From positions 28,443 to 92,442 of the forward strand of contig CAYQAP010000002.1 in the NCBI GenBank assembly GCA_964415515.1: a stretch of DNA of 64,000 bases, in the 5' to 3' direction. Positions within the stretch are counted from its first letter, which is position 1. The number at the start of each line of letters is the position of its first letter. The notes beneath the pieces were generated by a model, which saw nothing but the letters and a program-made list of their open reading frames with translations, made no database searches and was not told the origin of the DNA. Both the position numbers and the translations under genes were made by a program. Of the stretch, positions 1,572 through 37,134 are shown one piece after another. The DNA is from an uncultured Gammaproteobacteria bacterium. GTDB lineage: Bacteria > Pseudomonadota > Gammaproteobacteria > Arenicellales > DRJH01.

Positions 1572-2006
1572 ATGACAGCAGATACCAATACAACGGTTCA
1601 GGGAATCCGCAACGATCCTTTCGTAAAAGGCATGCTAAAACGTCTGCCCACAGAACAACGAAGCAGCTTCAGTGAGGAACAATTGCTGGGACTTAAGGTG
1701 GCGCTTGGCGCAAGGACATGGGGTACCCACCGCATTGACCTGCGTTGGACCATGAAGTTATGGAAAAAAAGCTACTATATTGTCATTATTGCAGGCGTCA
1801 ATCGAAGGTCCCCCAACCGTCGACAGCAGAAGCTGGCAAGATTAGGAAAGGCCATATTTTTGGCAACACTCTTTCTTATTCTCAGTGTGTTTAGTCTCCT
1901 CCTGCTATACATTATTAAATCTGCACTTGGTATCGACTTGATAGATAATTTTTCTCTCGGTATTTGGTCTGCTATTAAGAATCTTGTTAATGGAGGCCTG
2001 TACTAA
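1572..2006 (+). CDS. Hypothetical small membrane protein
   Basis: 144-aa ORF with a soluble basic N-terminal part followed by two hydrophobic segments (YYIVIIAGV; AIFLATLFLILSVFSLLLLYII). No family recognised. Confidence 0.45.
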   Translation: MTADTNTTVQGIRNDPFVKGMLKRLPTEQRSSFSEEQLLGLKVALGARTWGTHRIDLRWTMKLWKKSYYIVIIAGVNRRSPNRRQQKLARLGKAIFLATLFLILSVFSLLLLYIIKSALGIDLIDNFSLGIWSAIKNLVNGGLY

Positions 2007-2026
2007 GAATAGGTGTACCGGCTATA

Positions 2027-2051
2027 AGTAGTCAGTTTATTCCTGACTACT
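2027..2051. terminator. Hairpin between convergent genes (9-bp stem AGTAGTCAG / CTGACTACT, 7-nt loop)
   Basis: A perfect 9-bp inverted repeat read directly from the sequence. It overlaps the stop codon of the wzy-like gene. There is no U-tract on either side, so terminator function is uncertain. Confidence 0.3.
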
Positions 2052-3215
2052 ATGCAAAGTGTGCTTATAATCAACGGATTTCACTAGCATCATGGTGAGA
2101 ATTTGATAGGTAATATATATAATTGTATTGTCAGTTGGTAATAATGTCATACTGAAAATAAAAACTAATACACTGAAGCAGTTTCGAATAATAATCGTCC
2201 AGATTGCAAGAATGTATAATAATAATCCTATAATACCATATTCGAATTGCAATTTCAGGAAATCATTATGGGGATTATCAAAAATCAGGTAAATAACCTG
2301 TAATGTATTATCTGCAGAACCAATGCCGTGCCCAAATAGAGTTGAAAATATCTCGGTATTTGATACAATACGATTTAATTCACTTTGAATGGCTATCCTG
2401 CCTTGCAGAAAGTAATCTGCAGAAACATCATAGTAGTGAAAATAATTAAGGATAATCCTTGCAAGATAAGCAATATTCATTGCAATTAGATATAGGATAA
2501 TTACATAGATCACAGCAGTAAATAATGATTTTCTATATCTCTGTGTATTCAGGTATTCTCTGGGCTTGAAACCAAATAAATACAAATATGCGCCTAAAGA
2601 TGCCAATAGGGCAAAAAATGCAATTCTCTTAAAAATAATGCCATTCATAAATAGACTGATTGTCATCCATTTATAGTCTTTACGATAAATGAAATATAAT
2701 GAAAAAAGTGCAAACTGGAATGCATTATCTTCTTGCAAGGCAATTGAATCTACCAAATATGATCTTACGTTGAAACTGACATTAGTTTTAAAGGTAAACC
2801 CTACTAATGAATTGATCACAAAAACAATAAACAGGGTTTTTATCATTTTATCTGAAATCGCAACTACGGGTATAAAAGTGATAAATACAGCGCTAATAAT
2901 TAGAAAATCCCGGTAGGAAAAGAATGTTGCATATTGAAGGCTTAATAATGAAAATATAACAGCAATAATATATAAGAACAGCCCCAAAACCATTTTTTTA
3001 TCAAAAAGTATTACTTTTAGGATGACACTATTGAGAATTCCTGATACAAGAGAAATATATGGTAATATGTAAATAAGTTGTTGCAGCCCGGGAATTATAT
3101 TTCTTAAGGTAAATAAGATAGCAAAACTTCCACATACAACCCATCCTTGCCTGATCTTTAATAGTGCTAAAGCATCAGCTCTGGGATCAGAACTTGGAGT
3201 ACAAGATATTACCAT
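2037..3215 (-). CDS. Wzy-type polysaccharide polymerase / O-antigen ligase family (Wzy_C) membrane protein
   Basis: 392 aa, almost entirely hydrophobic segments, very AT-rich codons. The motif HNDFLKLQFEYGIIGLLLY matches the Wzy_C signature (compare HNDYLEFLLETGLIG in 10296..11723). Confidence 0.7.
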   Translation of the reverse strand: MVISCTPSSDPRADALALLKIRQGWVVCGSFAILFTLRNIIPGLQQLIYILPYISLVSGILNSVILKVILFDKKMVLGLFLYIIAVIFSLLSLQYATFFSYRDFLIISAVFITFIPVVAISDKMIKTLFIVFVINSLVGFTFKTNVSFNVRSYLVDSIALQEDNAFQFALFSLYFIYRKDYKWMTISLFMNGIIFKRIAFFALLASLGAYLYLFGFKPREYLNTQRYRKSLFTAVIYVIILYLIAMNIAYLARIILNYFHYYDVSADYFLQGRIAIQSELNRIVSNTEIFSTLFGHGIGSADNTLQVIYLIFDNPHNDFLKLQFEYGIIGLLLYILAIWTIIIRNCFSVLVFIFSMTLLPTDNTIIYITYQILTMMLVKSVDYKHTLHSSQE

Positions 3216-3426
3216 TTTGGTTGCACTTTAAGTATTATACTCTATTAATAAGTTATCAGTATAATTATGGGCTATAATGTATGTTTACAGTTACATCGCA
3301 TTTCACAAAAAGCCAAGTTAATTGATCCATCAGTACAGACTGATTGTAGGCTCATGATCGTGCTATATTTAATTTCAGTTGAATATCATCACATAAACTA
3401 TATTGAGACTAACATATTAACACAAC

Positions 3427-3435
3427 ACTATAATG
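3427..3435. repeat. Left copy of putative 9-bp target-site duplication (ACTATAATG)
   Basis: Directly abuts the left inverted repeat. Matches 8/9 with ACTAAAATG at 4182..4190. Confidence 0.6.
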
Positions 3436-3453
3436 CATATCGTTACCGTTATC
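3436..3453. repeat. Left terminal inverted repeat CATATCGTTACCGTTATC
   Basis: The reverse complement of 4164..4181 is CATACCGTTACCGTTATC, with one mismatch at position 5. Confidence 0.8.
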
Positions 3454-3769
3454 TCGGAAATGGCAATTTCGCTGGACACGGCAAAAATGAATCTGATCTA
3501 ATGCGCTTCAAATCACACCGGAGAGCCCCATGGATGTCCAGCACCTGCCGCAGAAAATCTGTAATCGCCTCTTTGATGCCCAGGCACTGGCCCAGATTCG
3601 TCATATTGTTCATGTTTGCTGCGAGCAAGCCAGCAGGCACAGGCGCCACGGTGCCCCGTTACCGATCAAACAGATCTGGCTGTACCCACTTGCGCAGGGA
3701 TGTTCGCAAACGCTTGTGTGCTCCGCTGCCGCCACTGCCGGTGCTCACCCACTCCGTAGCGGGTTCGAC

Positions 3770-4168
3770 ATGAAGACGGTGACCGCCATTGAACCGCAAA
3801 CAACCCAAACCCTGGCGGATGAGACCCTGGGTATCGAGTTGGGCGACAAACGACTAAATTGGCGTGCCGGCAAGGCGATCGAGCAACTGGGTCGTCAGCC
3901 GCGCAGCAGCATTCCCTCGGCCAACCGGGGCGGGAGTGAACCACGTTCCGCCTATGATCTATTCGCCCATAAGAACACCGAAGCACAGAAGATTCTGCAA
4001 CCGCATTATCAATCGACGCCGGAACGCATAAAACCGCATCCACGGGTGCTGGTGGCTCAAGCCACCACGGAACTGGACTACACCGGCAGGAACGATATTG
4101 TTGGCCTGAAAAGATGTCGAGATTTTGTGTTAGGTATTGCCGCACAAAAAGCAATCGATCAGCGATAA
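3770..4168 (+). pseudogene. Truncated IS4-family transposase (N-terminal DNA-binding region fused in frame to the extreme C-terminus)
   Basis: 132 aa. LGDKRLNWRAGKAIEQL...SIPSA...AYDLFAHKNTEAQKILQPHYQST...VLVAQATTELDYT parallels Tn5 Tnp LGDPRRTARLVNVAAQL...AYRFIRNPNVSAEAIRKAG...LLAIEDTTSLSY. The first DDE Asp position reads QATT instead of (E/Q)DTT. The tail VGLKRCRDFVLGIAAQKAIDQR resembles IS4 C-termini (GLQRLTDFAAG...). The stop codon lies inside the right IR. About 330 aa of the catalytic core are missing. Confidence 0.75.
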
Positions 4169-4181
4169 CGGTAACGGTATG
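4164..4181. repeat. Right terminal inverted repeat GATAACGGTAACGGTATG
   Basis: Reverse complement of the left IR (17/18). Confidence 0.8.
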
Positions 4182-4190
4182 ACTAAAATG
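4182..4190. repeat. Right copy of putative 9-bp target-site duplication (ACTAAAATG)
   Basis: Directly abuts the right IR. Matches 8/9 with 3427..3435. A 9-bp duplication is the size produced by IS50/Tn5-type elements. Confidence 0.6.
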
Positions 4191-4207
4191 ACATAAAGGA
4201 CATTCAC

Positions 4208-4966
4208 TTGTACGATCCTAATCCTCTATTTTTTACTACTTCCTGGGACGATGGCCATCCTATGGACAACCGCCTTGCAGAACTACTTGCAAAATATGAT
4301 ATTCAAGGAACATTCTACATTCCAGCGACTAATATTGAGGGTAGAAGTACACTTACCGAAAAAGATATTATTTCCCTTTCCAGCTCATTCGAAATTGGTG
4401 GCCATACTTATAGCCATATTTATTTGGATAAATTAAGTTCTGATAGAGCCTGGCATGAAATTGTAGATGGTAAAGAGTATATCGAGCAAATACTTGGTAC
4501 TAAAATCTCTGGCTTTTGTTATCCTGGTGGAAAATATAATTGTTCACTAAAACAACTTGTTAAAAATGCTGGATTTGAATATGCCAGAACAATAGCGAAT
4601 TTAAGCATCACACCTGGATATGATCCCTTTCAACTTTCGACAACACTACAATTATATGATCATAGCAAAACTGTATATTGCAGAAATTATCTAAATAACT
4701 TATATCGTGAAAAAGCAAGCTTCGCACTTCTTCTAATATGCTTGAAAACTAACACATTATCACAACGGTTACATAATTGCCTTGACTTCGCACTAAAATC
4801 AGGAGGAATCTTTCACCTCTGGGGCCATTCATGGGAAATTGAAGAATATCAAGGCTGGAAAATACTTGAAAACTTTTTTATGGAAATCAATGGTGTTCTC
4901 GATAAAGACTCAAGAATAACCAATTCTCAAACCGCACAACTATTGGCTAATAATACTATATTATGA
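4208..4966 (+). CDS. Polysaccharide deacetylase (NodB-homology/CE4) family protein, no signal peptide
   Basis: 252 aa with a TTG start preceded by AAAGGA. Motifs TTSWDDGHP (TFDDG-like) and EIGGHTYSH (H-S/T-x-x-H). Confidence 0.75.
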   Translation: MYDPNPLFFTTSWDDGHPMDNRLAELLAKYDIQGTFYIPATNIEGRSTLTEKDIISLSSSFEIGGHTYSHIYLDKLSSDRAWHEIVDGKEYIEQILGTKISGFCYPGGKYNCSLKQLVKNAGFEYARTIANLSITPGYDPFQLSTTLQLYDHSKTVYCRNYLNNLYREKASFALLLICLKTNTLSQRLHNCLDFALKSGGIFHLWGHSWEIEEYQGWKILENFFMEINGVLDKDSRITNSQTAQLLANNTIL

Positions 4967-5772
4967 TGTTCAAAACTCTACTCAGAGCAACATTGGGACC
5001 TGTGATGTTGCCACTGCTTTCTCTATATAACCAACGAGTACATCCCTATGCAGTCATACTTCTTTATCATTCAATATCAGATGAATCAAATATAACTGAT
5101 CCAGTTAATATCTCTGCTTTTCGACAACATATGCAATTCCTGGTACAGAATTATACTGTTATTCCACTCAATTCAATTCAAAAGGCCTTGTCTTCATTTA
5201 ACAAAGGCAGCAAACCTTATGCAATTATTACTTTTGATGATGGATACCTTGATAATTATACCAACGCATTGCCAATTCTCGATGAATTTCATTTACCCGC
5301 CACTTTCTTTCTTGCTACTTCCGAAATAGGAAGTGAAGCTAATCCCAGACTCCGAAGTCAATATGGCATTGAAATCCCAATGATGGATTGGCACCACATT
5401 AAGCAGCTGTTAGCAAGGCATCACTTGATCGGCTCACATACTGAATCACATCATACTATGTTAACTTTGTCGGAAGGACAAAGGATTATTGAACTCAAAA
5501 GATCACAAGAACTGATTCATAGAAATACTGGAGTGCTGACAGAGCTATTTTCTTTACCCTATGGGGACAAATACAGCTACACATACCAGGATTGCATGCA
5601 AGTTTCTAAGTATTATAGAATCTGTTGTAATAATATCCGAGGGAAGAATAGTAAAAAGAATCTTGATCTCATTAATCTTTACAGATATTCAATCACTGGA
5701 TCTATGTGTATAAATCAATTCAAAATGGAGCTAAAAGGTTGTTATGACATTTTGGAGATATTCAGGATTTAA
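4963..5772 (+). CDS. Polysaccharide deacetylase (NodB-homology/CE4) family protein
   Basis: 269 aa. Motifs AIITFDDGYLDNY, LPATFFL and IGSHTESHH. ATGA start/stop overlap with the upstream gene. Confidence 0.8.
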   Translation: MMFKTLLRATLGPVMLPLLSLYNQRVHPYAVILLYHSISDESNITDPVNISAFRQHMQFLVQNYTVIPLNSIQKALSSFNKGSKPYAIITFDDGYLDNYTNALPILDEFHLPATFFLATSEIGSEANPRLRSQYGIEIPMMDWHHIKQLLARHHLIGSHTESHHTMLTLSEGQRIIELKRSQELIHRNTGVLTELFSLPYGDKYSYTYQDCMQVSKYYRICCNNIRGKNSKKNLDLINLYRYSITGSMCINQFKMELKGCYDILEIFRI

Positions 5773-5776
5773 ACAA

Positions 5777-6949
5777 ATGAGGAAATCAACACACTGCGAT
5801 TCTTCGGTGCTTTTTATTGAGCGTATCGTTCCCGCTTACCGGGTCCCCTTTTTTCTTGCTATGTACGAGCTGTTACGGCGTGCATCAATTAAGCTTGCTG
5901 TCGTTGGTGGCGCCTGCATGCCGTCTGAATATCTGACTAACTCACTTGTTGAGCTTCCCTTTGGCCATCCTATCCATAATCACTATCTCTTTCGCAGTAT
6001 TTACTGGCAGTCTGGTCTGTTGCAACTAGCGAAATCATCCCAGCTTATTATCACTGGACAGGAAAATCGTTCCTTAACAACTAACATGATAGTGCTGCGA
6101 CGAAGGCTCACCCGGAGACCACCACTTATTGCCTTCTACGACCATGGCCCAGTATCAGCCGGTTCTTCGCTATACTCATCCCTCAACTATGCGCTGAAAA
6201 AATCTTTAAGCCTGCGTGCAGACTGGTGGTTTGCCTATACAGAACTCAGTAAAAGTCGTCTCATCCAAGCAGGCTATAACCAATCTAGAATCACGGTCGT
6301 AAATAATGCAATTGATACACTGAAACTTTCAGAAGCTGTTGAGAAGATTACCCCTGAAGAATTGACTTCTCTATACAACAAGCTATTTGGAGAAAATATT
6401 ACCTCAACCGATAGTGTAGTAATTGCTATATCCTGTACACGCCTTATTGCAGAAAAAAAAATCAAGGCCCTATTGACTGCATTGGACATGATTTATGCCA
6501 CAACCTCACATTTTCGAATGCTTGTGATTGGCGACGGCCCGATGAAAAGCGACCTTCAGAATTTCTGTCGATCACGATCCTGGTGTAAATATCTAGGAGT
6601 GCTTTATGGAAAAGAGCGTAACCAATATTTTGCTTTGGCTGATGTCTGGTTAAATCCTGGAACAGTTGGCCTCACGGTACTTGATGCCTTTGCTTCCTCA
6701 GCCCCATTGTTTACCACTACATCTCCTTCACACGGGCCGGAAATTTGCTATCTCGAGCACAACAACAATGGAGTGATCACAACTGATGATGTAACTCAAT
6801 ACGCAAACTCCGTCACACAAGTCATTCAAAACCCTAAAGAATTACAACGAATGCAGGCATCGGCAAGACAATCAGCATTACATTATAGTCTCGATTCCAT
6901 GGTCAATCACTTTTCCTCTGGCATCGTGAAAGCCCTGTCAGCGGGTTAA
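5777..6949 (+). CDS. Glycosyltransferase, GT-B fold (GT4/GT1-like)
   Basis: The ORF runs 5744..6949. The ATG at 5777 just after the upstream stop is the likelier start. The C-terminal half (VIGDGPMKSDL..., ADVWLNPGTVGLTVLDAFASSAPLFTT) looks like a retaining GT-B sugar transferase. Confidence 0.65.
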   Translation: MRKSTHCDSSVLFIERIVPAYRVPFFLAMYELLRRASIKLAVVGGACMPSEYLTNSLVELPFGHPIHNHYLFRSIYWQSGLLQLAKSSQLIITGQENRSLTTNMIVLRRRLTRRPPLIAFYDHGPVSAGSSLYSSLNYALKKSLSLRADWWFAYTELSKSRLIQAGYNQSRITVVNNAIDTLKLSEAVEKITPEELTSLYNKLFGENITSTDSVVIAISCTRLIAEKKIKALLTALDMIYATTSHFRMLVIGDGPMKSDLQNFCRSRSWCKYLGVLYGKERNQYFALADVWLNPGTVGLTVLDAFASSAPLFTTTSPSHGPEICYLEHNNNGVITTDDVTQYANSVTQVIQNPKELQRMQASARQSALHYSLDSMVNHFSSGIVKALSAG

Positions 6950-8253
6950 TGTTCATCATGAAGCAGGAAAACAAAAAATACCGGCTGTTCAATATTGTTC
7001 AAGGCACTACCCTATCGGTGATCGACCACGCCAGCTTATCTGCCTTGAATTTTCTACTCGGACTTGGTTTCATTAATTTTGGCAGCAAAACAGACTATGG
7101 CAATTACGCGCAGTTATTTGCTTTTATGATACTGATACAGAGTATTTTTCATTCTCTGGTTTATGAGCCGCTATTGACGCTGGCAGCCAAAAAAAGCCCC
7201 ATCAAAACCGCCAGAATGGAGTCCGCGCTGCTCTGGTATCTCACAAGCAGCGCACTTCTTGGCTCTTTCCTGATCTACCTGCTGTTACTCGCCGCCATCC
7301 GATTGCAGTTCATAACGGAACTCAGTACCTCAACCGTATTGCCCTTCTCCTTGGCTATATTTTCCCTTCTCATGCGTGAGTACGTCAGGACCGTATGCTT
7401 TTTGCGCCGTCAACCGGCACGATCTTTACAGGTGGATTCGATTTATGCAATCAGCCTCTGCCTGGGGTTATTGTTTTTTGCCATGACCACTGGATTTGTT
7501 CTTGGTGCGGTTTTCAAATCCATGATCATGGCTAATATCATGGCAGTGATTTTTGGCCTGTTACGGCTACGAATTGAGCCTATCTATCCGCTGCGAGATT
7601 TTCGCCAGGTCATTTACGAAACCTGGAACTGTGCAAAATGGTCGCTGCCACGCTCTGTTGTCACTTGGCTTCTCGCCAACACCTATCTGTACATTACCAG
7701 TTTTTTCTTTGGCTCAGTTATCGTGGCCGAAATTGCTGCTGCGCGACTGTTTATTATGCCCCTGGGGCTATGTTTGACCGCCTGGGAAAAAATCTTTTTA
7801 CCCCGGGCAAGCCGCTGGCTTTCTCACAATGACGTACTTAGGGTCCAGCAGACAGCCCTCTTTTCAGCAAGGATATTTCTGGCACTTGTGTTACTGTATT
7901 TTCTGTTACTTGTCGTCTCCTTTGAGAAAATACAGTTTTATTTATTGGCGAATAACTACTCAAACATTTTACCGTTTGTTTTGCTTTGGGGGGGCTGGGC
8001 TCTGGTCAATTCCTTCCGTACCGTGGCTACAAATTTACTACTCGCCGCCTTAAAGTTTCAGCAACTCTTTCACTATGCAACGATTGTTGCTCTTTTGTCT
8101 TTACCAATTACCGGCATTGCCGCTTTCATTTTAGGCCCAGAGGCCACCCTGGTTACTTATATTCTCTCTGAAGTACTCTTCACCTACCTAACATGGTATA
8201 AAGGCTGGAGCAATGTTCGCAAGGTGCTTCAGACCACAAACACCAGCCCATGA
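6949..8253 (+). CDS. Wzx-type oligosaccharide flippase (MOP superfamily) candidate
   Basis: 434 aa with about 12 or more hydrophobic helices, embedded in the glycosyltransferase operon. TAATG overlap with the upstream gene. Assigned by architecture and context, not by a strong motif. Confidence 0.55.
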   Translation: MFIMKQENKKYRLFNIVQGTTLSVIDHASLSALNFLLGLGFINFGSKTDYGNYAQLFAFMILIQSIFHSLVYEPLLTLAAKKSPIKTARMESALLWYLTSSALLGSFLIYLLLLAAIRLQFITELSTSTVLPFSLAIFSLLMREYVRTVCFLRRQPARSLQVDSIYAISLCLGLLFFAMTTGFVLGAVFKSMIMANIMAVIFGLLRLRIEPIYPLRDFRQVIYETWNCAKWSLPRSVVTWLLANTYLYITSFFFGSVIVAEIAAARLFIMPLGLCLTAWEKIFLPRASRWLSHNDVLRVQQTALFSARIFLALVLLYFLLLVVSFEKIQFYLLANNYSNILPFVLLWGGWALVNSFRTVATNLLLAALKFQQLFHYATIVALLSLPITGIAAFILGPEATLVTYILSEVLFTYLTWYKGWSNVRKVLQTTNTSP

Positions 8254-9455
8254 ACATCCTCATAGGTCACACTAACTATATCGTAGCTGGCGGCGAAGAC
8301 TCCAGTGTTCTCGCCGAGACAGCGTTGCTTCAGGCACATGACCATCAAGTGCTCTTCTATGCCAGAGATAACCATGAAATTCAATCGTATTCTTTGCTCC
8401 AGAATTTAGGACTTTTCTTTACCACCCGCTGGTCACAACATACATACCAGCGTATCTATGATTTGTGCTATAAGCAAAAACCCGATATCGCCCACTTTCA
8501 TAATACATTCCCTCTCCTTTCTCCTGCTGTTTACTACGCCTGCCAGGATGCAAAGGTACCAGTTGTTCAAACACTGCATAATTATCGACTTATCTGTCCG
8601 GGTGCATTACTGCTCCGAGATGGCAGAGTCTGTGAACAATGTCTTAACCAGTCTCTCTACAAAGCAGTGCTACATGGTTGTTATCGGAACTCTGCCATAC
8701 AGACTTTGGCTGTCTCCAGAATGCTATCTTACCACCGTAACAAAAACACCTGGAATAACAAAGTTGATCAATATATAGCTTTAACCAATTTTGCCAAGAC
8801 AATGTTTGTTCGAGCTGGCCTTCCGGAACAACGAATAACCGTTAAGCCTAATTTCACAGCCGACCCCGACAACCTCGTTTTGCCTCAGCAGCGTTGTGGT
8901 GCGGTGTATGTTGGCCGATTAAGCCAGGAAAAAGGAATCATAACGCTACTGAGGTCCTGGAAAAATATAGCTCAGCCACTTAACGTTGTCGGTGGTGGGC
9001 CGTTACTGAACACTGCCCTGAGCTCAGCTTCTTCATGTGTAAAAATTTTAGGCAACCTCCCCAGGGACAAGGTTTCTTCAACTATGCAAGAGGCGCTGTT
9101 TCTCGTTTTACCCTCCGAGTGCTACGAGGGATTTCCCCTGGTCATTGCAGAAGCTTTCGCCCATGGTCTCCCCGTTGTTTGCTCAAGGCTAGGGGGCATG
9201 CAGGAAATTGTTAAAGATCACCTTACTGGCTTGCACTTTACGCCGGGTGATGCACAAGACCTGGCCGTAAAATGCCAGTGGCTTTTTGACCACCCGGAGG
9301 AGCGTTTAAACATGTCGGAATGTGCCCGTGCTGAGTACCTCAAACATTACACTCCAGAAACAAACTATAACCTTCTCCTGGATATCTACCGATCAACAAT
9401 TATGCAGTACCGCTCAAACCAGGAAAACCCGCATGATTCTTCAGGCCACTCATGA
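8250..9455 (+). CDS. Glycosyltransferase family 1/4
   Basis: 401 aa. LSQEKGI, ECYEGFPLVIAEAFAHGLPVVCSRLGGMQEIV (E-x7-E region). ATGA overlap with the upstream gene. Confidence 0.85.
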   Translation: MNILIGHTNYIVAGGEDSSVLAETALLQAHDHQVLFYARDNHEIQSYSLLQNLGLFFTTRWSQHTYQRIYDLCYKQKPDIAHFHNTFPLLSPAVYYACQDAKVPVVQTLHNYRLICPGALLLRDGRVCEQCLNQSLYKAVLHGCYRNSAIQTLAVSRMLSYHRNKNTWNNKVDQYIALTNFAKTMFVRAGLPEQRITVKPNFTADPDNLVLPQQRCGAVYVGRLSQEKGIITLLRSWKNIAQPLNVVGGGPLLNTALSSASSCVKILGNLPRDKVSSTMQEALFLVLPSECYEGFPLVIAEAFAHGLPVVCSRLGGMQEIVKDHLTGLHFTPGDAQDLAVKCQWLFDHPEERLNMSECARAEYLKHYTPETNYNLLLDIYRSTIMQYRSNQENPHDSSGHS

Positions 9456-10213
9456 TTCCTTCGGTCAATATTCTTGGAACCCTGGTATCGGCTGTTAATT
9501 CAGAACTGGCCATTGCCACGATTTGCCACTGGATCGAAACCGGGGTTAAAGCCTATGTATGCGTGCGTGATGTGCATGGTATTATTCGCGCCCTACACGA
9601 TCCCGAATTCAAGAAGATCCAAAACCAGGCAGGAATGTGTGTTCCGGACGGAATGCCCACTGTACTGGTCGGGAGGTATTATGGACATACTAAAATGTCC
9701 AGAGTTCGTGGTGCTGATTTTATGAATCAGCTGTCAGCAGTATCCGTCGTCAAATCCATCAGGCATTTCTACTATGGTGGCAAGCCGGGGGTTGCTGATC
9801 TTCTCAAACATCGCATGCAGGCACGATTTCCCGGTTTACAGGTTGTGGGAACCTATTCACCGCCTTTTCGCCCACTCTCATCATCACAGAAAGCCGCGTT
9901 TATCGCCCAGATCGAAGCGCTCGCACCGGACATTATCTGGGTTGGGCTAAGCACCCCAAAACAGGAATCCTGGATGGCAGAATATCTTGAGCTACTCAAT
10001 GTCAAGGTATTGATTGGAGTAGGAGCCGCTTTTGATTTTCACACCGGGTTGGTCAAAGAGGCACCTAAGTGGATGCAAAAGTCCGGATTCGAATGGCTGT
10101 TCAGACTTTTTTCGGAACCTCGCAGGCTGTGGAAGCGCTATTTTTACATTATTCCACTTTTCCTGTTTCATTTGTCCTGCCAGTTATCTGGACTGCGTAA
10201 ATACAAGCCCTGA
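9452..10213 (+). CDS. WecB/TagA/CpsF family glycosyltransferase
   Basis: 253 aa. VNSELAIATI..., ADGMP, YGGKPGVA, WVGLSTPKQE, GVGAAFDFHTG, EWLFRLFSEPRRLWKRY are typical of this family. ATGA overlap with the upstream gene. Confidence 0.85.
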   Translation: MIPSVNILGTLVSAVNSELAIATICHWIETGVKAYVCVRDVHGIIRALHDPEFKKIQNQAGMCVPDGMPTVLVGRYYGHTKMSRVRGADFMNQLSAVSVVKSIRHFYYGGKPGVADLLKHRMQARFPGLQVVGTYSPPFRPLSSSQKAAFIAQIEALAPDIIWVGLSTPKQESWMAEYLELLNVKVLIGVGAAFDFHTGLVKEAPKWMQKSGFEWLFRLFSEPRRLWKRYFYIIPLFLFHLSCQLSGLRKYKP

Positions 10214-10295
10214 TCTGCAATGAACTCTTCTGCTTTTAACCACCCCATTAGCGCCTGCCCATGACACTGATCTCACTATTCAGGGAAATTTTGCA

Positions 10296-11723
10296 ATGAG
10301 CCAAAACCAACCTGCCGACAAAGGTCTATTTTATGGCTTTTTGGCACTTCTTTATTGGCTCCCTTTGCCTCTGGGCAGCAATCGGGGCTTTGCCATCATG
10401 ATTTTTGTACTTGTGGTTTGCCTGCTCAGCCTGTGGTGGTTGATTCTTTACTGGAGAAACAGGGTTCGTATTTCTTCAGCCTTCAAAAATACCTGGCCCT
10501 TGCAATTTCTTTTAGTACTATTTCTTGGCTACATTCTTCTGCAGCTACTCCCAATACCATCACCCTGGCTCGCAGCGCTGTCACCGGGATCATTCACCCA
10601 CTGGAACTCAATAAAAATCTTTAGGCCAGATAAAACCTTCGCTGCTCTATCACTCTCCCCTGATGACACATCATGGTTTCTCCTGAAAAGTGTTGGCTAT
10701 GTCCTGCTTTTCAACCTGACATTATTGATGGTCCGTAGTCATTCGCGGATCCGCCTATTACTCTTGACTCTGGTGATCAGTGGAACCTTACAGGCCATCT
10801 ATGGAAGCCTGATGATGTTATCGGGTACGGAATTTAGCTTCTTTGCAAAAAAAGCGGCATATTTGGGTTCGGCAACAGGTACTTTTGTTAATCGTAATCA
10901 CGTAGCCGGTTATCTGGAAATGTGCCTGGCAGCTGGCATCGGCCTGCTGATCATGAGCCTTGACCCACACAACAGTACAAACTGGCGTCAGCGCTTTGCC
11001 AATTTCCTGCGCCTGGTACTAAGCCCCAAAATCAAGGTCAGAGCTGCACTCGCCATTATGGTCATCGGCATGGTTCTCACCCATTCGAGAATGGGAAATG
11101 CTGCTTTTTTCATCAGCCTCATCATTACCGGAATTCTCTGGATGCTGCTCTCTGGACAACGGCCTGGCAAGCCCGTTTTATTACTGTTGACCAGTCTTTT
11201 TGTTATTGACCTCTTCATTGTCGGCAATTGGTTTGGTGTCGACAAGGTAGTAGAGCGTATAGAAAATACCCGGGCCAATGCTGAGACACGCGATGAGGTG
11301 GTCCGTGACAGTATAGTCTATGCAAAAAACTTTCGACTAACAGGCAGTGGTGGCGGGACATTTGCCACAGTGTACCCCATCTTCAGGCAAGCAGATGTTC
11401 AAGGTTTCTATGATCACACCCACAATGACTACCTGGAGTTTCTGCTCGAAACCGGACTTATCGGTACCGCTCTGTTAGGTATCTTTACCGCCAGCAGTGT
11501 GCTCGCCGCTTTGCTCTCGATCCGTAAGAGACATCAAGCTGTAATGCGTGGAACCGGCTTTACTGCAACGATGGGGTTGATCGCGATCCTGATTCATTCC
11601 CTGGTTGATTTTAATCTGCAGATTCCTGCCAATGCAGCATTATTTATGGTTTTGTTAGCCTTGGCCTGGATCGCGTTATTTCTCGGTCGCCATCAACGAT
11701 TGCAAAAATCATCTACTTCCTGA
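10296..11723 (+). CDS. O-antigen ligase / Wzy_C family membrane protein
   Basis: 475 aa, polytopic. Contains a large loop with the HTHNDYLEFLLETGLIG signature. Confidence 0.75.
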   Translation: MSQNQPADKGLFYGFLALLYWLPLPLGSNRGFAIMIFVLVVCLLSLWWLILYWRNRVRISSAFKNTWPLQFLLVLFLGYILLQLLPIPSPWLAALSPGSFTHWNSIKIFRPDKTFAALSLSPDDTSWFLLKSVGYVLLFNLTLLMVRSHSRIRLLLLTLVISGTLQAIYGSLMMLSGTEFSFFAKKAAYLGSATGTFVNRNHVAGYLEMCLAAGIGLLIMSLDPHNSTNWRQRFANFLRLVLSPKIKVRAALAIMVIGMVLTHSRMGNAAFFISLIITGILWMLLSGQRPGKPVLLLLTSLFVIDLFIVGNWFGVDKVVERIENTRANAETRDEVVRDSIVYAKNFRLTGSGGGTFATVYPIFRQADVQGFYDHTHNDYLEFLLETGLIGTALLGIFTASSVLAALLSIRKRHQAVMRGTGFTATMGLIAILIHSLVDFNLQIPANAALFMVLLALAWIALFLGRHQRLQKSSTS

Positions 11724-12364
11724 ATACCCTTGACGCGATAACATAGATACAACTTAAGGTTATAGTGTTTGACCACCTTGATCAGGCGGTCTGGGTCAAT
11801 CCTGACCAGTCTGTTGATCTGTTGCTCCAGTCTTCTTCTCTCCTCAGCATGGAGCTCCGACAAATGGCTAAAATATATTTGTATCCCTCCTATTAGTACG
11901 GTCGGCTCATAGCCTCCCAACTCATCCAATTTCCGCATCGCGGTATGAAACTGTGCATCCCGCTGACCCAGCTTGTCCTTGACTATTGCATAGGAAAGCC
12001 AACCGTAAACATAGGCCGGACGTTGAACTACGGCTCGCGTGTATAAGGTGAGAGCCCGCTGTAAAGCCTGATTGCGAGCTGATCCCGATATTTCAAGTGT
12101 TGACCTCCAAAGAAAAAGATCCCCACCAAGTTGTAACAAGGAGGGACTCGAAGCGTGCCAATAGCTTGCCTTATCAAAAAAGGTATTAGCCTTCTGCCAC
12201 TGCTTGTCCGTCGGACTTTTTCCAGCCTGATCCCAACTGTCTGTATACGCCTGCAAAAAATATTGGTTGATAGAAGCCATTCCCAATCTTACTGCGACAT
12301 AGCCCGTCACCAGCAAAAGGATCACAACAAACAGCAACAGTACTTTTTTAGCCAGTATAGACAT
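11693..12364 (-). CDS. Hypothetical membrane-anchored helical-repeat (TPR-like?) protein
   Basis: 223 aa with an N-terminal TM anchor (VLLLFVVILLLVTGYVAV), then an alpha-helical-looking repeat region. Its 3' end overlaps the convergent ligase-like gene by 31 nt. Confidence 0.45.
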   Translation of the reverse strand: MSILAKKVLLLFVVILLLVTGYVAVRLGMASINQYFLQAYTDSWDQAGKSPTDKQWQKANTFFDKASYWHASSPSLLQLGGDLFLWRSTLEISGSARNQALQRALTLYTRAVVQRPAYVYGWLSYAIVKDKLGQRDAQFHTAMRKLDELGGYEPTVLIGGIQIYFSHLSELHAEERRRLEQQINRLVRIDPDRLIKVVKHYNLKLYLCYRVKGIQEVDDFCNR

Positions 12365-12388
12365 CAGGGTGAAAATCCCTGCTAACCA

Positions 12389-13117
12389 TTACAGACCAAA
12401 ATGTACCGCACTGATAGCTGCTGGCATCTCCTGAAAAAGCCTCACTGCTACCCCTTCTCCGGCGTGCTGACAAACCATATCAAACGCAGCTTGCAATCGT
12501 GGTGGTCGATGCACTAGGTTGTGTGCATCTGTAGCCACCACATCAATCCAGCCACGTTCCAGCATTTGCAGTGCTCGCTTTTTTGCATAAGGTCCAAATC
12601 CTCCAGTAATAGAGCGCGCAGTCACTTGCAGCATTGCCCCTGCTTCCCTAATCGGTTCAATTTTTTCCAGATGGGTCAAAACAGCTTTATTTCGTTCGGG
12701 ATGAGCGACCAGTGGCCTGATGTTATGTGACAATAAATATTTAATAAATTTTACTGTGCCTGGCAAAATCATTGAGTGAGGAAATTCCAGCAGCAGGATT
12801 TTATAGCCACCCAGCTTACCCAAAAAAGGGATTTTATTGCCGGCAATCATGGTCATGACCTGTGGATCAATTCGAACCTCGGCCGCAAAAGCAATGCGCA
12901 ATGGGATGCTGCGTGCTAACAGCGCTTGCTGCAGAATCGTATAAGCCGCCTGTATCGAATGGACGTCATTATCGTACCGATTCAAATGAATATGTGGTGT
13001 GATCACTGAGTGGGTAATACCGTCTTCGACAGCAATTTCCACCAACTTCAGCGCATCATCCAGATCGACTGCACCATCGTCGATACCTGGCAAAAGATGG
13101 CTATGTAAATCGATCAT
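12389..13117 (-). CDS. PHP-family protein-tyrosine phosphatase (CpsB/CapC type)
   Basis: The ORF extends to 13153. The internal start MIDLHSHLLPGIDDGA mirrors the S. pneumoniae CpsB N-terminus (MIDIHSH...DDG). Further His-rich metal motifs are present (TPHIH, AHPERN, ATDAHN). Confidence 0.85.
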   Translation of the reverse strand: MIDLHSHLLPGIDDGAVDLDDALKLVEIAVEDGITHSVITPHIHLNRYDNDVHSIQAAYTILQQALLARSIPLRIAFAAEVRIDPQVMTMIAGNKIPFLGKLGGYKILLLEFPHSMILPGTVKFIKYLLSHNIRPLVAHPERNKAVLTHLEKIEPIREAGAMLQVTARSITGGFGPYAKKRALQMLERGWIDVVATDAHNLVHRPPRLQAAFDMVCQHAGEGVAVRLFQEMPAAISAVHFGL

Positions 13118-13258
13118 ATCACTCGGCAGATTAATTAATAACCAGGGAGACATCCTGAATGTGGAGTTTTTGCTATCAACCCCTTAAGCTGCTTTCAGCA
13201 TAGCAGTCGGTCAACCAGCTGAACAGCCCAGTTTTATCGGTATCGATCGAACTTACGA

Positions 13259-15481
13259 TCAGTCATGGTGATAACCCTCATAGGAACCATAATAGCCATA
13301 ATTATAATTGTAGTAACCTTTGTCACTCTTGCCTTGATCATGCGGAATGTCATTGAGTATTCCGCCGATAATATTGGCACCAATGCGACGTAAGCGTTTG
13401 AGGCCTTCCCGAACGGCCGGAATCGGAGTAGACTCAGATTTGACCACATAGATCACACCACTGGATTTGCTAGCCACTACCAAAGAATCACTTACGGCCA
13501 ATGTTGGTGCAGTGTCAATCACAATGGTGTCAAAGACCTTGCTAAAGGTCTCGAGCATTGCACCGAAACGTTTAGAGGAAAGAAGGGCAACCGGGTTGGG
13601 GGGGATTATCCCGGATGGCATCACATGAATATTGCTGTCATCAATTCGATGTATGCATTTACTGATAGTTGCTATACCAGATACATATTCGGATAAGCCC
13701 GGAGCTTTAGAATCAATACTCCACACTTTAGCTACTGTAGGGCGGCGCATATCGGCATCAATCAGCAGTACTTTGGCAAACTCCGCCAGTGAACTGGCAA
13801 GGCTCCCAGAGATAGAGCTCTTACCTTCCCCAGGTACCGAAGAGGTCACCATGATCACCTTGTAAGGATTGTCCAGACTGGAAAGCAACATCCCGGCACG
13901 GATAGTCCTGATTGATTCTGAATAGTAGGACTGCTGGTGCTCCTGCATATAATTGATTGGGTTTTCACCCGCATTCGTTTTTAATTTCAAGTGCGGTAAA
14001 GTGCCCAATTCGGTCATCTGCAGACGACCCTCCAGATCACCCGTACGACGCAATGTATTATCAAGATGCTCATGCAGGAAAGCCACGAAAATACCAAAAA
14101 ATAATCCCAGGATAGTCGCAATAGAAATAATCAATCCTTTCTTGGGTTTGATCGGCTTCAATGCCGGAACTGCAGGATCGGCAATTCTTGCGCCGGGTTT
14201 GATCAGACCCGTTTGCTTGGTTTCCTTGGAGCGATTTAGAAATAATTCAAACAGCTTTTTATTCGATGCCACATCCCGCATCAGCACACCCAACTGATAA
14301 CTTTTACGACTGGTGGACTGAATAGTGTTCTTGGCAGAATTGATTGCTGACAGCAGGGATTGCTCACTGGTTTTAGCAACTTGATAACTTTTCTGAATAC
14401 TTTCCAGGACCACTCGAACCCGTCGATCGACCGCAATCTTGGCGGCCTTGAGGTCGGCCTTGGCCTGAATTAATTTTGGATGCTTGGGCCCATATCGTTT
14501 GCGCAGGGTTTGTAGATTGCGTTGTGAAACTTCTTCAACCTGCTTTAATTTCCCTAGCAACTGATCATTCAGGACTGCAGGCAGGGTACTCAATTTTTCA
14601 ATTGACCCGCCTTTGAGCCTTTTTACCTGCCGCAGTGCAGTTTCAGCTTCCACCCGTTTCTGGCGAGTCAGTATTAATTTGGTTTGCAATTCCTGAAGCT
14701 GCCTGGAATCGAGCGCCCCTACATCATTGGATTCAAGTAAACCCTGTTTTTCACGGTATTGCTGTAATGCAGTTTCAGACTCCTGCAACTTGTTTTTTAA
14801 TGTTTTCAGGCGATCATCCAGCCAAGTGGAAGCCAGTGTGGTTAGTTGCAACTTGGCATCCATATCATTTTCGATATAAGCCTGAGCCAGTGAGTTGACA
14901 ATTTGAGCAACCAAATTTCGATCGTTGGCCTCAAAACTGATCTTTACCAACTGGCTGGAATTGATGGGAATGACCTGAATACGTTGTGTGACTTGATTCA
15001 CCGTTTTCTCAAAGGTCATATTCGCATTGGCTGGTGGTTTGGCAGTTAGTGATGCAGGTAGCCATGTTGGAAGCCAGCTGCGCCAGTCAAAATCAACCAA
15101 CGGTTTCTTACGATCGACAAATTCCGGATTATTGGTCAACTGCAATTTCTTAACAACCTGTCCAACCAGTTTTCTGGATTTAAGTAGTTCATACTGGGTC
15201 CGAAAATAATCATTCCCCCCTAAGCCGTAGACCTCCTTGATGGAAACCACATTATTCTTGTCTGGAGAAATCAGGAGTATTGCAGACGATTGGTAGATAG
15301 GCTTCATGGAGTAAACAACCAACGTCGCCAAAATAGCAATCATCAGGGTCAGTGTAAGAATACTCCACCGGTGTCGCTTAATGACCTGACCGTACTCACG
15401 AAGGTTCAGCTCACCCTCGTCAGATTTGAGCACAGTTGCAGTCTCGTTCTGCTTTATCTCAGTCAATCTTGCTGTCCTCAC
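13259..15481 (-). CDS. wzc: Polysaccharide co-polymerase / tyrosine autokinase (Wzc-type BY-kinase)
   Basis: 740 aa with a GTG start. Two TM segments flank a long coiled-coil periplasmic domain. The C-terminal P-loop domain has SSVPGEGKSS, LLIDADMRRP and IVIDTAP, followed by a Tyr-rich tail GYYNYNYGYYGSYEGY. Confidence 0.9.
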   Translation of the reverse strand: MRTARLTEIKQNETATVLKSDEGELNLREYGQVIKRHRWSILTLTLMIAILATLVVYSMKPIYQSSAILLISPDKNNVVSIKEVYGLGGNDYFRTQYELLKSRKLVGQVVKKLQLTNNPEFVDRKKPLVDFDWRSWLPTWLPASLTAKPPANANMTFEKTVNQVTQRIQVIPINSSQLVKISFEANDRNLVAQIVNSLAQAYIENDMDAKLQLTTLASTWLDDRLKTLKNKLQESETALQQYREKQGLLESNDVGALDSRQLQELQTKLILTRQKRVEAETALRQVKRLKGGSIEKLSTLPAVLNDQLLGKLKQVEEVSQRNLQTLRKRYGPKHPKLIQAKADLKAAKIAVDRRVRVVLESIQKSYQVAKTSEQSLLSAINSAKNTIQSTSRKSYQLGVLMRDVASNKKLFELFLNRSKETKQTGLIKPGARIADPAVPALKPIKPKKGLIISIATILGLFFGIFVAFLHEHLDNTLRRTGDLEGRLQMTELGTLPHLKLKTNAGENPINYMQEHQQSYYSESIRTIRAGMLLSSLDNPYKVIMVTSSVPGEGKSSISGSLASSLAEFAKVLLIDADMRRPTVAKVWSIDSKAPGLSEYVSGIATISKCIHRIDDSNIHVMPSGIIPPNPVALLSSKRFGAMLETFSKVFDTIVIDTAPTLAVSDSLVVASKSSGVIYVVKSESTPIPAVREGLKRLRRIGANIIGGILNDIPHDQGKSDKGYYNYNYGYYGSYEGYHHD

Positions 15482-15725
15482 ACATACAAGACGTAGTGCT
15501 TAAAAAAACATGCAATACGGCGCACCCAAAAATTTTCGAGATATCACCCCACCAGTGTAGCAAACTATTCACAGCCACCCATCCTGCCACTATGGCCTCA
15601 AACAAGCAAAATCTTGAATTAACTTTAGTTCTTCAGTGCAGTTTATTGTTTTTACTTGACCATTGCAATACGACAAACTTGTCAGTCAAAGAAAGCTGGC
15701 ACAGTAGCCCCAAGCCTATTGGGCA

Positions 15726-16301
15726 TTAGAAGAAGCTACGCTTCACAGTGATCACGTCACCAGGTGTTACCAGGGCACTTAATGTAACCTTGGCAGGAGT
15801 AGCGTCAGGAGTTTTACCGGGAACCACAACAATATTTTCCCGATCAGCACGCTCATTGAACCCGCCGGCCAGGGCAATGGCCTTACGAACTGTCATTCCG
15901 GGCTGAAACGGGTAACCACCTGGTATCTTTACCCAGCCGTTGACATAGAAATTACGATACTGCAGTAAGGATACCGTGACAATAGGATCCACCAAATAAG
16001 GGCCTTTGAGCGTGTCGGTGACGAACTTCTCCAGTTCCGCAGCCGTCATGCCCTGGACCTTGATCGCACCGAGAAATGGATAGGAAATTGTTCCACTATC
16101 ACTGACCAAGGTTTCGATGGTCATATCCGGCTCACCGAGCACCTGTATCTTGATTTTATCACCAGCACCAAATTTGTACTCGGTTTGTGCATCAGCTGAT
16201 GTTGAAAATACCAGAAACATAAATGCTAACAACAGGATAAACCCACTACTGATGAAGCCAGAATTGCTGTAGAACAACCACCTTGTTCGATCCACGGTCA
16301 A
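15726..16301 (-). CDS. Polysaccharide export protein, short Wza/EpsE-like (Poly_export + SLBB)
   Basis: 191 aa with a TTG start and a signal-like N-terminus ending STSADA. GDKIKIQV, YPFLGAIKVQGMTAAELE, YVNGWVKIPGGYPFQPGMTVRKAIALAGG. Confidence 0.8.
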   Translation of the reverse strand: MTVDRTRWLFYSNSGFISSGFILLLAFMFLVFSTSADAQTEYKFGAGDKIKIQVLGEPDMTIETLVSDSGTISYPFLGAIKVQGMTAAELEKFVTDTLKGPYLVDPIVTVSLLQYRNFYVNGWVKIPGGYPFQPGMTVRKAIALAGGFNERADRENIVVVPGKTPDATPAKVTLSALVTPGDVITVKRSFF

Positions 16302-16477
16302 AGCACCTGAGTCACTATGATTTCACTCCCGATACCACATTAATTATTGCTCTGATTTAATAGTACCTATCAGGACCATACCCCCGATACAGATTAATAT
16401 TCTCCCAAGCCAATATAGCAGATCTCTATGCTTGGTGTTGTGCTCTATCGTGTGTCCGAGAATATCTGTTTTCATCT

Positions 16478-17875
16478 TCAGTAAGCATTCTTGCCAGTAA
16501 AGCCCCGAAAAACTGTCATCACGATTATTTTCATGTCCAGCCAAGTGCTCCAGTTCTGGATATACCAGAGATCACACTTGATTCGCTCTTCCATCTTGTC
16601 CTGAGTTTGTGTTTCCCCACGCCAGCCATTAACCTGAGCCCAGCCGGTAATCCCAGGCCTTACCGCATGACGCAACATATAGCCTTTGATTCGCAAGCGA
16701 TAATACTCGTTATGTACGACCGCATGGGGTCTGGGCCCTACAATCGACATTGTACCGGCCAGGACATTAAAAAGCTGGGGGAGTTCATCTAGCGAAGTCC
16801 GGCGGATAAAAGCGCCGACTCTGGTCACTCTCGGATCGTTACGTACTGCCTGTGTTACGATACGATCGTTCTCTCGTGTTGTCATGCTGCGAAACTTCCA
16901 TACCGTAAATTCTTTGCCATCCATCCCATAACGCTTCTGTCTGAATAGCACCGGACCTGGAGAGCTGATTTTTACCGCCACTGCTATCATCAGCATGACC
17001 GGGCTGATAAGGATCAGAATCAACATCGATAACACCATATCCTGCACTCGCTTCAGAAACAGTGCTGCGCCTGTAAACGGAGTTTGAAAGACACTAACCA
17101 TAGAAATGTCATCGAGTGCCTGCCATTGTTGCCCATGAAACAAGTTGAAGGTAAACAAATCCGGGATTATAAATACAGATGCCGTGGTATCGGATAATGC
17201 GCTGAGCAACTCAACAATACGCTTTTTGGCATTGATCGGTAACGCAATATAGATCTGATTAACTTCCCCATTTCGGGCTTTCTCGATTATCGTCTCGAAA
17301 TTACCATCAATCTCGCAGGATGAATTGATCCGTTTTTGTGCAGGCTTTCGGTCATCATAAATACCAAGCAAATCATAGCCGAAATTAGGATGACGCTGGA
17401 TGGCCTTCACCAGATGCATACCCGCATCACTTGCACCCAGGACCGCAACTTTTTGCCGATCATACCCTTTACTACGGGCATAGTACATGATGGTGCGGGT
17501 CAGCCTGCGCCACAGCAACATCGGTACCGGTGTGACAATAAACCAAAAAACTGTCGCCAGACGAGAAAAATTCTCACTCTGTTTGGTGGCATACAAACCA
17601 ACCAACAATACCAACGCTGCAATCACCCAGGTGGTAGTAACCAGCGTGGCCTCGTAAGCAAAGGGAATATTACGCCAAGATCGATAAAGATTGAGCACCT
17701 CTGCGACAATCAGGAAAATTGCAACTGCAACAATATCGAGAAAAATATAGAGTGGTTTATTGGCCACATAGGAATAGGCTTGCAAGGCCACCTGCAAAGA
17801 CAAGTAGATGGCCAGCGCATCAAACAATTTGAAAAGTGCGGACACCAGCAATGACTGATTGTGCTCGCTATTCAT
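16478..17875 (-). CDS. Polyprenyl-phosphate hexose-1-phosphate transferase (WcaJ/WbaP-type priming glycosyltransferase)
   Basis: 465 aa. N-terminal TM bundle, central Rossmann-like region, and a C-terminal bacterial sugar transferase domain (PGPVLFRQKRYGMDGKEFTVWKFRSM, DELPQLFNVLAGTMSIVGPRP). Confidence 0.9.
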   Translation of the reverse strand: MNSEHNQSLLVSALFKLFDALAIYLSLQVALQAYSYVANKPLYIFLDIVAVAIFLIVAEVLNLYRSWRNIPFAYEATLVTTTWVIAALVLLVGLYATKQSENFSRLATVFWFIVTPVPMLLWRRLTRTIMYYARSKGYDRQKVAVLGASDAGMHLVKAIQRHPNFGYDLLGIYDDRKPAQKRINSSCEIDGNFETIIEKARNGEVNQIYIALPINAKKRIVELLSALSDTTASVFIIPDLFTFNLFHGQQWQALDDISMVSVFQTPFTGAALFLKRVQDMVLSMLILILISPVMLMIAVAVKISSPGPVLFRQKRYGMDGKEFTVWKFRSMTTRENDRIVTQAVRNDPRVTRVGAFIRRTSLDELPQLFNVLAGTMSIVGPRPHAVVHNEYYRLRIKGYMLRHAVRPGITGWAQVNGWRGETQTQDKMEERIKCDLWYIQNWSTWLDMKIIVMTVFRGFTGKNAY

Positions 17876-36931: not shown

Positions 36932-37134
36932 AACATTCCTCTGTCTGTTGGTCTTTGCATATAGGATTACTTGCGTTGGGAGATCGGTAATGTTGCAACC
37001 TGCCGCTGTGGCCCGGATACCCTGAGACACACAAAACAGCTTAGGATTCGAACCTCCCTCCGCACGCTATAGACCGTACCGGACCCACTAAGTTCCTGCA
37101 CTGTCTAAAAGGGTCATTCAAAGCAGCCAGAAAA

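Follow-up and report, generated by a model that had tools for sequence, protein, structure and literature searches.

A putative Wzx/Wzy-dependent exopolysaccharide or capsule locus with no linked porin gene in an uncultured gammaproteobacterium

Gene content of the locus and its sister copy

A 64,000-nucleotide stretch of DNA from an uncultured gammaproteobacterium (contig CAYQAP010000002.1 of assembly GCA_964415515.1, positions 28,443 to 92,442), referred to here as the window, contains a gene cluster bounded by galE and rph that, by the families of its products, is predicted to be a Wzx/Wzy-dependent exopolysaccharide (EPS) or capsule pathway. It is a real and fairly ordinary EPS cluster, built on an export core common to hundreds of beta- and gammaproteobacteria, and its main oddity is the absence of the porin gene. 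The polymer is uncharacterised, and the host is known from metagenomes only. Open reading frames (ORFs) were listed and scanned with the hidden Markov models (HMMs) of Pfam and NCBIfam (Table 1). One half of the locus is concerned with the repeat unit and includes glycosyltransferases, two deacetylases of carbohydrate esterase family 4 (CE4) and a protein of the multidrug/oligosaccharidyl-lipid/polysaccharide (MOP) superfamily. The export half encodes a priming transferase, a short protein of the outer-membrane polysaccharide export (OPX) family, a class 2a polysaccharide co-polymerase (PCP-2a) fused to a bacterial tyrosine kinase (BY-kinase), and a phosphatase. Transcription of the two halves converges, and the gene for the 475-amino-acid (aa) Wzy_C protein, designated Wzy_C475, shares 31 bp (11693-11723) at its 3' end with the 3' end of the VpsP-like gene.

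An earlier sequence-only reading had listed WcaJ, three further glycosyltransferases, two Wzy_C proteins, two deacetylases, a 191-aa Wza, Wzc, CpsB and galE, and the Pfam and NCBIfam scans confirmed this list; every ORF named there was found in place and with the family assigned to it, except for the Wzx candidate. The ORF of that candidate is present, no family model matched it directly, and its support from the MOP family and from the fold is indirect. The list was also incomplete, as the VpsP-like gene, a transposase fragment and a small ORF (orf144) had been overlooked. The convergent layout agreed with the ORF map. The claim that galE is the only nucleotide-sugar gene was upheld as well, since the HMM scans found no other epimerase or dehydrogenase gene at the locus.

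Table 1. Features of the locus in window coordinates (GC, guanine plus cytosine; TM, transmembrane segments)
Feature	Position	Strand	Matches and properties
galE, UDP-glucose 4-epimerase, left flank	322-1335	-	TIGR01179 453 bits (cutoff 262); GC 52%; same place in sister (L088)
orf144, small hydrophobic membrane protein	1572-2006	+	no family match
Variable Wzy_C-like membrane protein, 392 aa	2037-3215	-	~9 predicted TM; Wzy_C 25 bits, E 1.7e-5 (gathering score 31.7)
IS4/Tn5-family transposase fragment, N-terminal DNA-binding part only	~3770-4168	+	PF14706 E 1.7e-10
CE4 polysaccharide deacetylase, 252 aa	4208-4966	+	Polysacc_deac_1 70 bits; DD and HxxH metal-binding motifs; weak HfsH-type match
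CE4 polysaccharide deacetylase, 269 aa	4963-5772	+	Polysacc_deac_1 84 bits; DD and HxxH motifs; hydrophobic N-terminus
GT4 glycosyltransferase	5744-6949	+	Glyco_trans_1_4 and Glycos_transf_1
Divergent MOP-superfamily multi-TM protein, 434 aa, Wzx candidate	6949-8253	+	family and fold
GT4 glycosyltransferase (second)	8250-9455	+	Glycos_transf_1 93 bits
GT26 (WecG/TagA/CpsF) glycosyltransferase	9452-10213	+	PF03808 197 bits; TIGR00696 160 bits (cutoff 69)
Conserved Wzy_C protein, 475 aa (Wzy_C475)	10296-11723	+	Wzy_C 72 bits
VpsP-like bitopic membrane protein, 223 aa	11693-12364	-	NF038257 70.8 bits, E 1.2e-19 (cutoff 125)
CpsB/PHP-type protein-tyrosine phosphatase	12389-13153	-	PF19567 166 bits
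Wzc, PCP-2a co-polymerase fused to BY-kinase	13259-15481	-	Wzz, GNVR, AAA_31; TIGR01007 158 bits (cutoff 108)
Class-3 (short) OPX/Wza, 191 aa	15726-16301	-	Poly_export and SLBB only; C-terminus ...RSFF; no lipobox cysteine
WcaJ-type undecaprenyl-phosphate glucose-1-phosphate transferase, priming	16478-17875	-	TIGR03023 557 bits (cutoff 411); Bac_transf 244 bits

The locus forms a low-GC island, with a GC content of 31% in the 392-aa Wzy_C gene, ~35% in the deacetylase genes and 44-48% in the core genes, the flanking genes having 52-58%. A sister genome (ENA ERZ508539; NCBI GCA_011052285.1) holds the same locus in the same order: galE, orf144, Wzy, two CE4, glycosyltransferase and Wzx genes, then GT26, Wzy_C, VpsP-like, CpsB, Wzc and OPX genes. 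Protein identity to the sister is 55-65% in the variable half (2037-8253), 78-87% in the core half (9452-16301) and 80% for galE, indicating more rapid evolution, or exchange, of the repeat-unit half. The ratio of nonsynonymous to synonymous substitution rates (dN/dS) against the sister was 0.06-0.14 wherever dS could be estimated (it had reached saturation in four variable-half genes), and these values indicate purifying selection on functional genes. The 31-bp 3' overlap is kept in the sister (2550-2580 of the sister locus L083), with no terminator between the two genes. Promoter and terminator scans of the locus gave chance-level results only.

The repeat-unit half carries two intact CE4 genes. 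The 252-aa deacetylase, which has no N-terminal signal-like segment, is probably cytoplasmic, and the 269-aa enzyme, whose strongest NCBIfam match covers the N-terminal portion of PgaB (58 bits, cutoff 322), is possibly periplasmic. CE4 enzymes can remove O-acetyl groups too. A partially de-N-acetylated heteropolysaccharide, as the sequence-only reading had proposed, would be a reasonable expectation from these two genes, and from the transferases encoded we infer a repeat unit of about four sugars, with glucose first and with deacetylated residues.

The 434-aa protein is a probable, though not proven, Wzx flippase. Neither Pfam nor NCBIfam had a matching model for it, even at E<=10, and a word-index search found only two homologues, whereas a full HMMER profile search found 3,737 representatives. 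Of 50 members of this family, seven match MatE, MurJ or Polysacc_synt. An AlphaFold model was built on three sequences and is of low confidence (predicted local distance difference test, pLDDT, 55); its top 50 Foldseek matches were all MOP transporters (MATE, MurJ, WzxE), with a best E of 3e-6.

The transposase fragment matches NF049926 and NF033590 at positions 2-56 of 405 only and represents an insertion scar. It lies in a gap of ~1070 bp directly upstream of the first deacetylase gene (3216-4207), which measures ~340 bp in the sister (L088) and holds no insertion sequence (IS) fragment there. In the Joint Genome Institute (JGI) assembly made from the same sample, a break falls close to the fragment. 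The orf144 product is 71% identical to the sister copy. Homologues of orf144 were found directly downstream of the Wzy_C475 orthologue in Neptuniibacter (L046 11472-11864) and inside an Alteromonas EPS locus (L082 184-573), and orf144 may be a further accessory of the EPS system.

The export core in relatives and the absent porin gene

Wzy_C475 has at least 3,929 homologues across beta- and gammaproteobacteria, which are 40-50% (mostly 45-50%) identical to it, and at least 569 loci among the GTDB species representatives of Gamma- and Betaproteobacteria contain it. The window proteins were mapped onto 80 of these loci. Core EPS genes lay within 10 kb of Wzy_C475 in 34 of the 39 well-flanked loci, and OPX, Wzc and a barrel occurred together in 22 of the 39. 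The usual collinear core comprises Wzy_C, WcaJ, a ~400-aa barrel, short OPX, Wzc, CpsB and VpsP-like genes, as in Sedimenticola (L007) and in L085 and L086. One assembly, GCA_024449685.1, holds both of the latter as two complete seven-gene cores. The barrel of the relatives belongs to PF10082 (BBP2_2, 131 bits) and is EpsL-like. Among 31 loci, the VpsP-like gene directly adjoins Wzy_C475 in 18 and CpsB in 14; by its score, the 223-aa window protein is a VpsP homologue that lies outside the NCBIfam VpsP family.

The sequence-only reading had regarded the architecture of the locus as a hybrid. This view was not sustained, as the short OPX, the fused Wzc, the PHP-type CpsB, Wzy_C and the VpsP-like protein recur together across beta- and gammaproteobacteria. 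CpsB was present in 32 related loci, so that the PHP-type enzyme belongs to the regular equipment of the proteobacterial core and is no oddity. The window Wzc has GEGKS as its Walker A motif, and eight of its last 20 residues are tyrosines. The glycosyltransferase sets of the Wzy_C475 loci are unrelated to one another. Hundreds of beta- and gammaproteobacterial species have the seven-gene core, and a limited literature search found no published description of it; the window locus is one more serotype-like variant of a common pathway.

What the window lacks is the barrel gene, whose absence from beside the short Wza had escaped the sequence-only reading. In all 33 relatives that could be assessed (32 by phmmer and L055 by tblastn), a barrel gene lies directly upstream of the short OPX gene. 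The gap between wcaJ and the OPX gene in the window, where relatives have the ~400-aa BBP2_2 gene, is only 176 bp (16302-16477). An HMM of 34 barrel sequences, run with --max against the six-frame translation of the 64-kb window, gave a best score of 3.1 bits, and a tblastn search of the window for the barrel found nothing.

Export by a short OPX protein paired with a barrel, as in VpsN/VpsM, is an established type (PMC9601211; PMC9603273). Secretion in Myxococcus xanthus requires the C-terminal Phe-Phe tail of WzaB, which binds the porin WzpB (PMC12819527). Such a tail, [ST]FF, is found in 33 of 34 orthologues of the window OPX, which itself retains Ser-Phe-Phe. The domains of the window protein end at residue 186 of 191, and because the protein stops five residues past SLBB, neither a Wza-type helix barrel nor a PslD-type strand barrel is possible (PMC13434223). 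A self-made barrel like that of PslD was considered and rejected, there being no OPX segment beyond the SLBB domain (cf. PMC13434223).

A locus that is decaying or defective in export, with its porin lost and scarred by an IS element, would yield at most a lipid-linked or periplasmic glycan, perhaps ligated by Wzy_C475. It would explain why the window has no copy of a gene that each of the 33 assessable relatives retains, and it fits with the transposase fragment inside the locus and with the sequence upstream of wza, which differs even from that of the sister (83% identical). We nevertheless regard decay as improbable, since all ORFs are full length, dN/dS is low where it could be estimated, and the porin-docking tail is retained. 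The dN/dS of wza, at 0.10, argues that this gene is in use. Supply of the porin from elsewhere in the genome would be the simplest reading, and split M. xanthus clusters with distant porin genes provide a precedent (PMC9603273). The lineage thus parts a short OPX from an otherwise always adjacent porin gene and offers a natural test case for the question whether class-3 OPX proteins can work with an unlinked porin. Upstream of wza, the sister contig runs on for only 270 bp (L083 7289-7558), in AT-rich sequence that is closed in all six frames and unalignable to the window, and the junction upstream of wza appears prone to rearrangement in this clade.

Roles of the two Wzy_C proteins and the proposed pathway

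Searching 5.8 billion clusters with the 392-aa Wzy_C protein returned three proteins at E<=1e-3. Its two relatives are the sister copy (67% identity) and one protein at 30% identity, and so small a number of detectable relatives is expected of a repeat-unit polymerase. The Wzy_C475 profile did not detect the 392-aa protein. Repeat-unit polymerases are not typically 40-50% identical over two proteobacterial classes, as Wzy_C475 is. In seven other loci, a second divergent Wzy_C protein (~400-425 aa) lies beside Wzy_C475, usually with Wzx and glycosyltransferase genes; these are loci of Parahaliea (L015), Haliea (L020), Halieaceae (L048), Alteromonas (L070 and L082) and Amphritea (L047 and L058), and for the second Wzy_C of L015, L020 and L048 the match, at 18-27 bits, falls short of the gathering score. 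The presence of two Wzy_C proteins is hence not confined to this locus.

Structure prediction, which had been proposed as a way to tell polymerase from ligase, was carried out for Wzy_C475. The model (pLDDT 79) had WaaL (7tpg) as its best Foldseek match (E 2.6e-6, TM-score 0.51/0.58), followed by RodA and FtsW of the shape, elongation, division and sporulation (SEDS) family; it did not separate the two roles. The Wzy_C475 profile matched none of the PDB chain sequences, and no similarity to WaaL was found at the sequence level. Both Wzy_C proteins carry an H(x10)G motif, which was therefore rejected as a discriminator of ligase from polymerase.

The match to WaaL, together with the presence of Wzx, Wzy and a priming transferase, would also suit a lipopolysaccharide O-antigen cluster, with Wzy_C475 as its WaaL ligase and the 392-aa protein as its polymerase. 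To our knowledge, O-antigen loci use Wzz (PCP-1) and not a BY-kinase Wzc, CpsB or OPX, the three being both present and conserved in this locus, and with no sequence-level resemblance to WaaL found, an O-antigen cluster is very improbable.

With modest confidence, we favour the 392-aa variable protein as the polymerase and Wzy_C475 as a ligase-type accessory. In the pathway as a whole, which we consider rather likely, a lineage-specific, low-GC repeat-unit half would be joined to the widespread export and control core in Wzx/Wzy-dependent synthesis of an EPS or capsule. Its steps follow from known functions of the families. WcaJ would form undecaprenyl-diphosphate (Und-PP)-linked glucose, Und-PP-Glc, which the two GT4 enzymes and the GT26 enzyme would extend to a repeat unit of about four sugars. 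The signal-less CE4 enzyme would deacetylate on the cytoplasmic side, and the second CE4 enzyme may act after export. The divergent MOP protein would flip the repeat unit over the inner membrane, where the hypervariable 392-aa Wzy_C would polymerise it. Wzc, cycled by the phosphatase CpsB, would control polymerisation and dock the short periplasmic OPX, which is predicted to be unable to span the outer membrane and would need a BBP2_2/Wzp-type porin from elsewhere in the genome. Wzy_C475 and the VpsP-like protein would be core accessories, Wzy_C475 most likely catalysing a ligase-type step, for anchoring or termination, on the Und-PP-linked glycan.

Several points weigh against this pathway. 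No porin gene is present in the window, and export through the outer membrane is an assumption. The Wzx assignment leans on the pLDDT-55 model and on sparse family matches, and hhalign of the Wzx-candidate family against one Polysacc_synt protein gave a probability of only 21%. An H-N-D-[YF]-x8-G motif is present in both window Wzy_C proteins; with this motif in common and WaaL as the sole solved Wzy_C-type match, the fold alone does not tell a ligase from a polymerase. The two Wzy_C475 paralogues of Haliea sp. E17 lie in different loci (L020 and L034), an arrangement that fits a cluster-specific role such as polymerase as well as it does a ligase, and the 392-aa gene lies on the opposite strand behind the IS scar.

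The last two points would be explained if Wzy_C475 were itself the EPS polymerase and the 392-aa Wzy_C and orf144 belonged to another glycan, such as an O-antigen, or were left over from an older cassette. The paralogues of Haliea suggest such cluster-specific use, and the transposase fragment physically separates the 392-aa gene. Wzy_C475 also travels with WcaJ, Wzc and OPX in 34 of the 39 well-flanked loci, and the stand-alone cores L085 and L086 show no second Wzy nearby. We consider this arrangement rather unlikely, because Wzy_C475 stays conserved over two classes even though the accompanying glycosyltransferases are unrelated, the 392-aa gene is undisrupted and keeps its position in the IS-free sister, and at least seven other loci pair Wzy_C475 with a second Wzy_C beside glycosyltransferase and Wzx genes. 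It is a tentative possibility that Wzy_C475 and the VpsP-like protein form an unrecognised conserved part of a very widespread, unnamed EPS core, with Wzy_C475 acting in ligase-type termination or anchoring, and not in repeat-unit polymerisation, beside a variable Wzy, in a lineage that has no linked porin and would use either a porin encoded elsewhere or another outer-membrane exit. The general question raised is the role of this conserved pair, often found alongside a second, variable Wzy.

Comparison with characterised systems and flanking genes

The core of the relatives has the same order as the vps-II cluster of Vibrio cholerae (vpsL-M-N-O-P-Q, VC0934-0939): priming transferase, which we take VpsL to be, then beta-barrel, short OPX, PCP-2a BY-kinase and VpsP-like protein. 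The vps-II layout and the VpsO kinase have been described (PMC7485978), as has the short-OPX/barrel couple of VpsN and VpsM (PMC9601211). The export half of the window fits this gene order and the class-3 OPX/porin export type. It differs from V. cholerae VPS in that its VpsP-like protein scores under the family cutoff (70.8 against 125 bits), a VpsM-type barrel is lacking, and the phosphatase is of the PHP/CpsB type and lies inside the core, whereas VpsU is a distant protein-tyrosine phosphatase of the low-molecular-weight type (LMW-PTP). The window also has the extra conserved Wzy_C, an unrelated glycosyltransferase set and no vpsA/vpsB-type precursor genes, galE being the only epimerase or dehydrogenase gene.

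With the WzaX/S/B and WzpX/S/B translocons of M. xanthus, the window shares an OPX composed of Poly_export and SLBB only, with no segment spanning the outer membrane, and a PCP-2a Wzc partner, and its Ser-Phe-Phe end resembles the porin-binding tail of WzaB. In contrast to the M. xanthus class-3 system, its porin gene is neither adjacent nor within the 64 kb. WzaB needs lipidation, whereas the window OPX has a signal-peptidase-I-type N-terminus and no lipobox cysteine, and the barrel of the relatives is of the BBP2_2/EpsL type, unlike the PgaA-like porin of the M. xanthus class-3 system.

Homologous proteins in the same order are encoded by the Methylobacillus-type Eps/XrtB (and XrtA) loci (EpsB-EpsL-EpsE-EpsF-EpsG-exosortase). 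The best NCBIfam matches are EpsE for the OPX, EpsF/EpsG for the halves of Wzc and EpsL for the barrel of the relatives, but these matches are far under the equivalog cutoffs (97.6 against 263, 172 against 423, 110 against 314 and 66 against 275 bits), and the EpsF and EpsG homologues are fused into one Wzc in the window. Pfam and NCBIfam scans of the ORFs of at least 140 aa in 1-18 kb yielded no exosortase match, and no PEP-CTERM gene was found in the locus, in agreement with the sequence-only reading. In Pseudomaricurvus alcaniphilus, a weak PEP-CTERM-domain protein is encoded just downstream of the Wzy_C475 orthologue (L002 11668-12375), and the Wzy_C475 family may sometimes neighbour exosortase substrates.

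With the group 1 capsule and colanic acid systems of Escherichia coli, the locus shares the predicted Wzx/Wzy logic, a WcaJ-type glucose-1-phosphate transferase (above the TIGR03023 cutoff) and a tyrosine cluster in its PCP-2a Wzc. Compared with Wza-Wzb-Wzc of E. coli, the window OPX has no Wza_C alpha-helical barrel and the phosphatase is of the PHP type rather than an LMW-PTP like Wzb. There are no other genes of the colanic acid wca set; the E. coli WcaJ model PRK10124 gave 534 bits (cutoff 684), and a sub-threshold WcaL match of the second GT4 enzyme (20.5 bits, cutoff 538) was the sole other match to a wca model. The pga/ica systems for poly-N-acetylglucosamine (PNAG) differ in having a GT2 synthase (PgaC/IcaA), which the window lacks, and PgaB is matched in part of its N-terminal domain only. 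The locus thus falls outside colanic acid, VPS, PNAG and XrtA/XrtB Eps by gene content and family scores, in line with the sequence-only reading. No close syntenic match to a characterised cluster, which that reading had named as grounds for refutation, was found, the close matches being the uncharacterised sister metagenome-assembled genome and many unannotated genomes.

The remainder of the window is a housekeeping region with prfA, hemA, prs, glmUS, the atp operon, parAB, rsmG and mnmG. In it, a 405-aa ORF on the reverse strand (35813-37030), with no Pfam match, overlaps a 292-aa ORF on the opposite strand. Proteins identical to those of the window were also found in JGI sample 3300002231.

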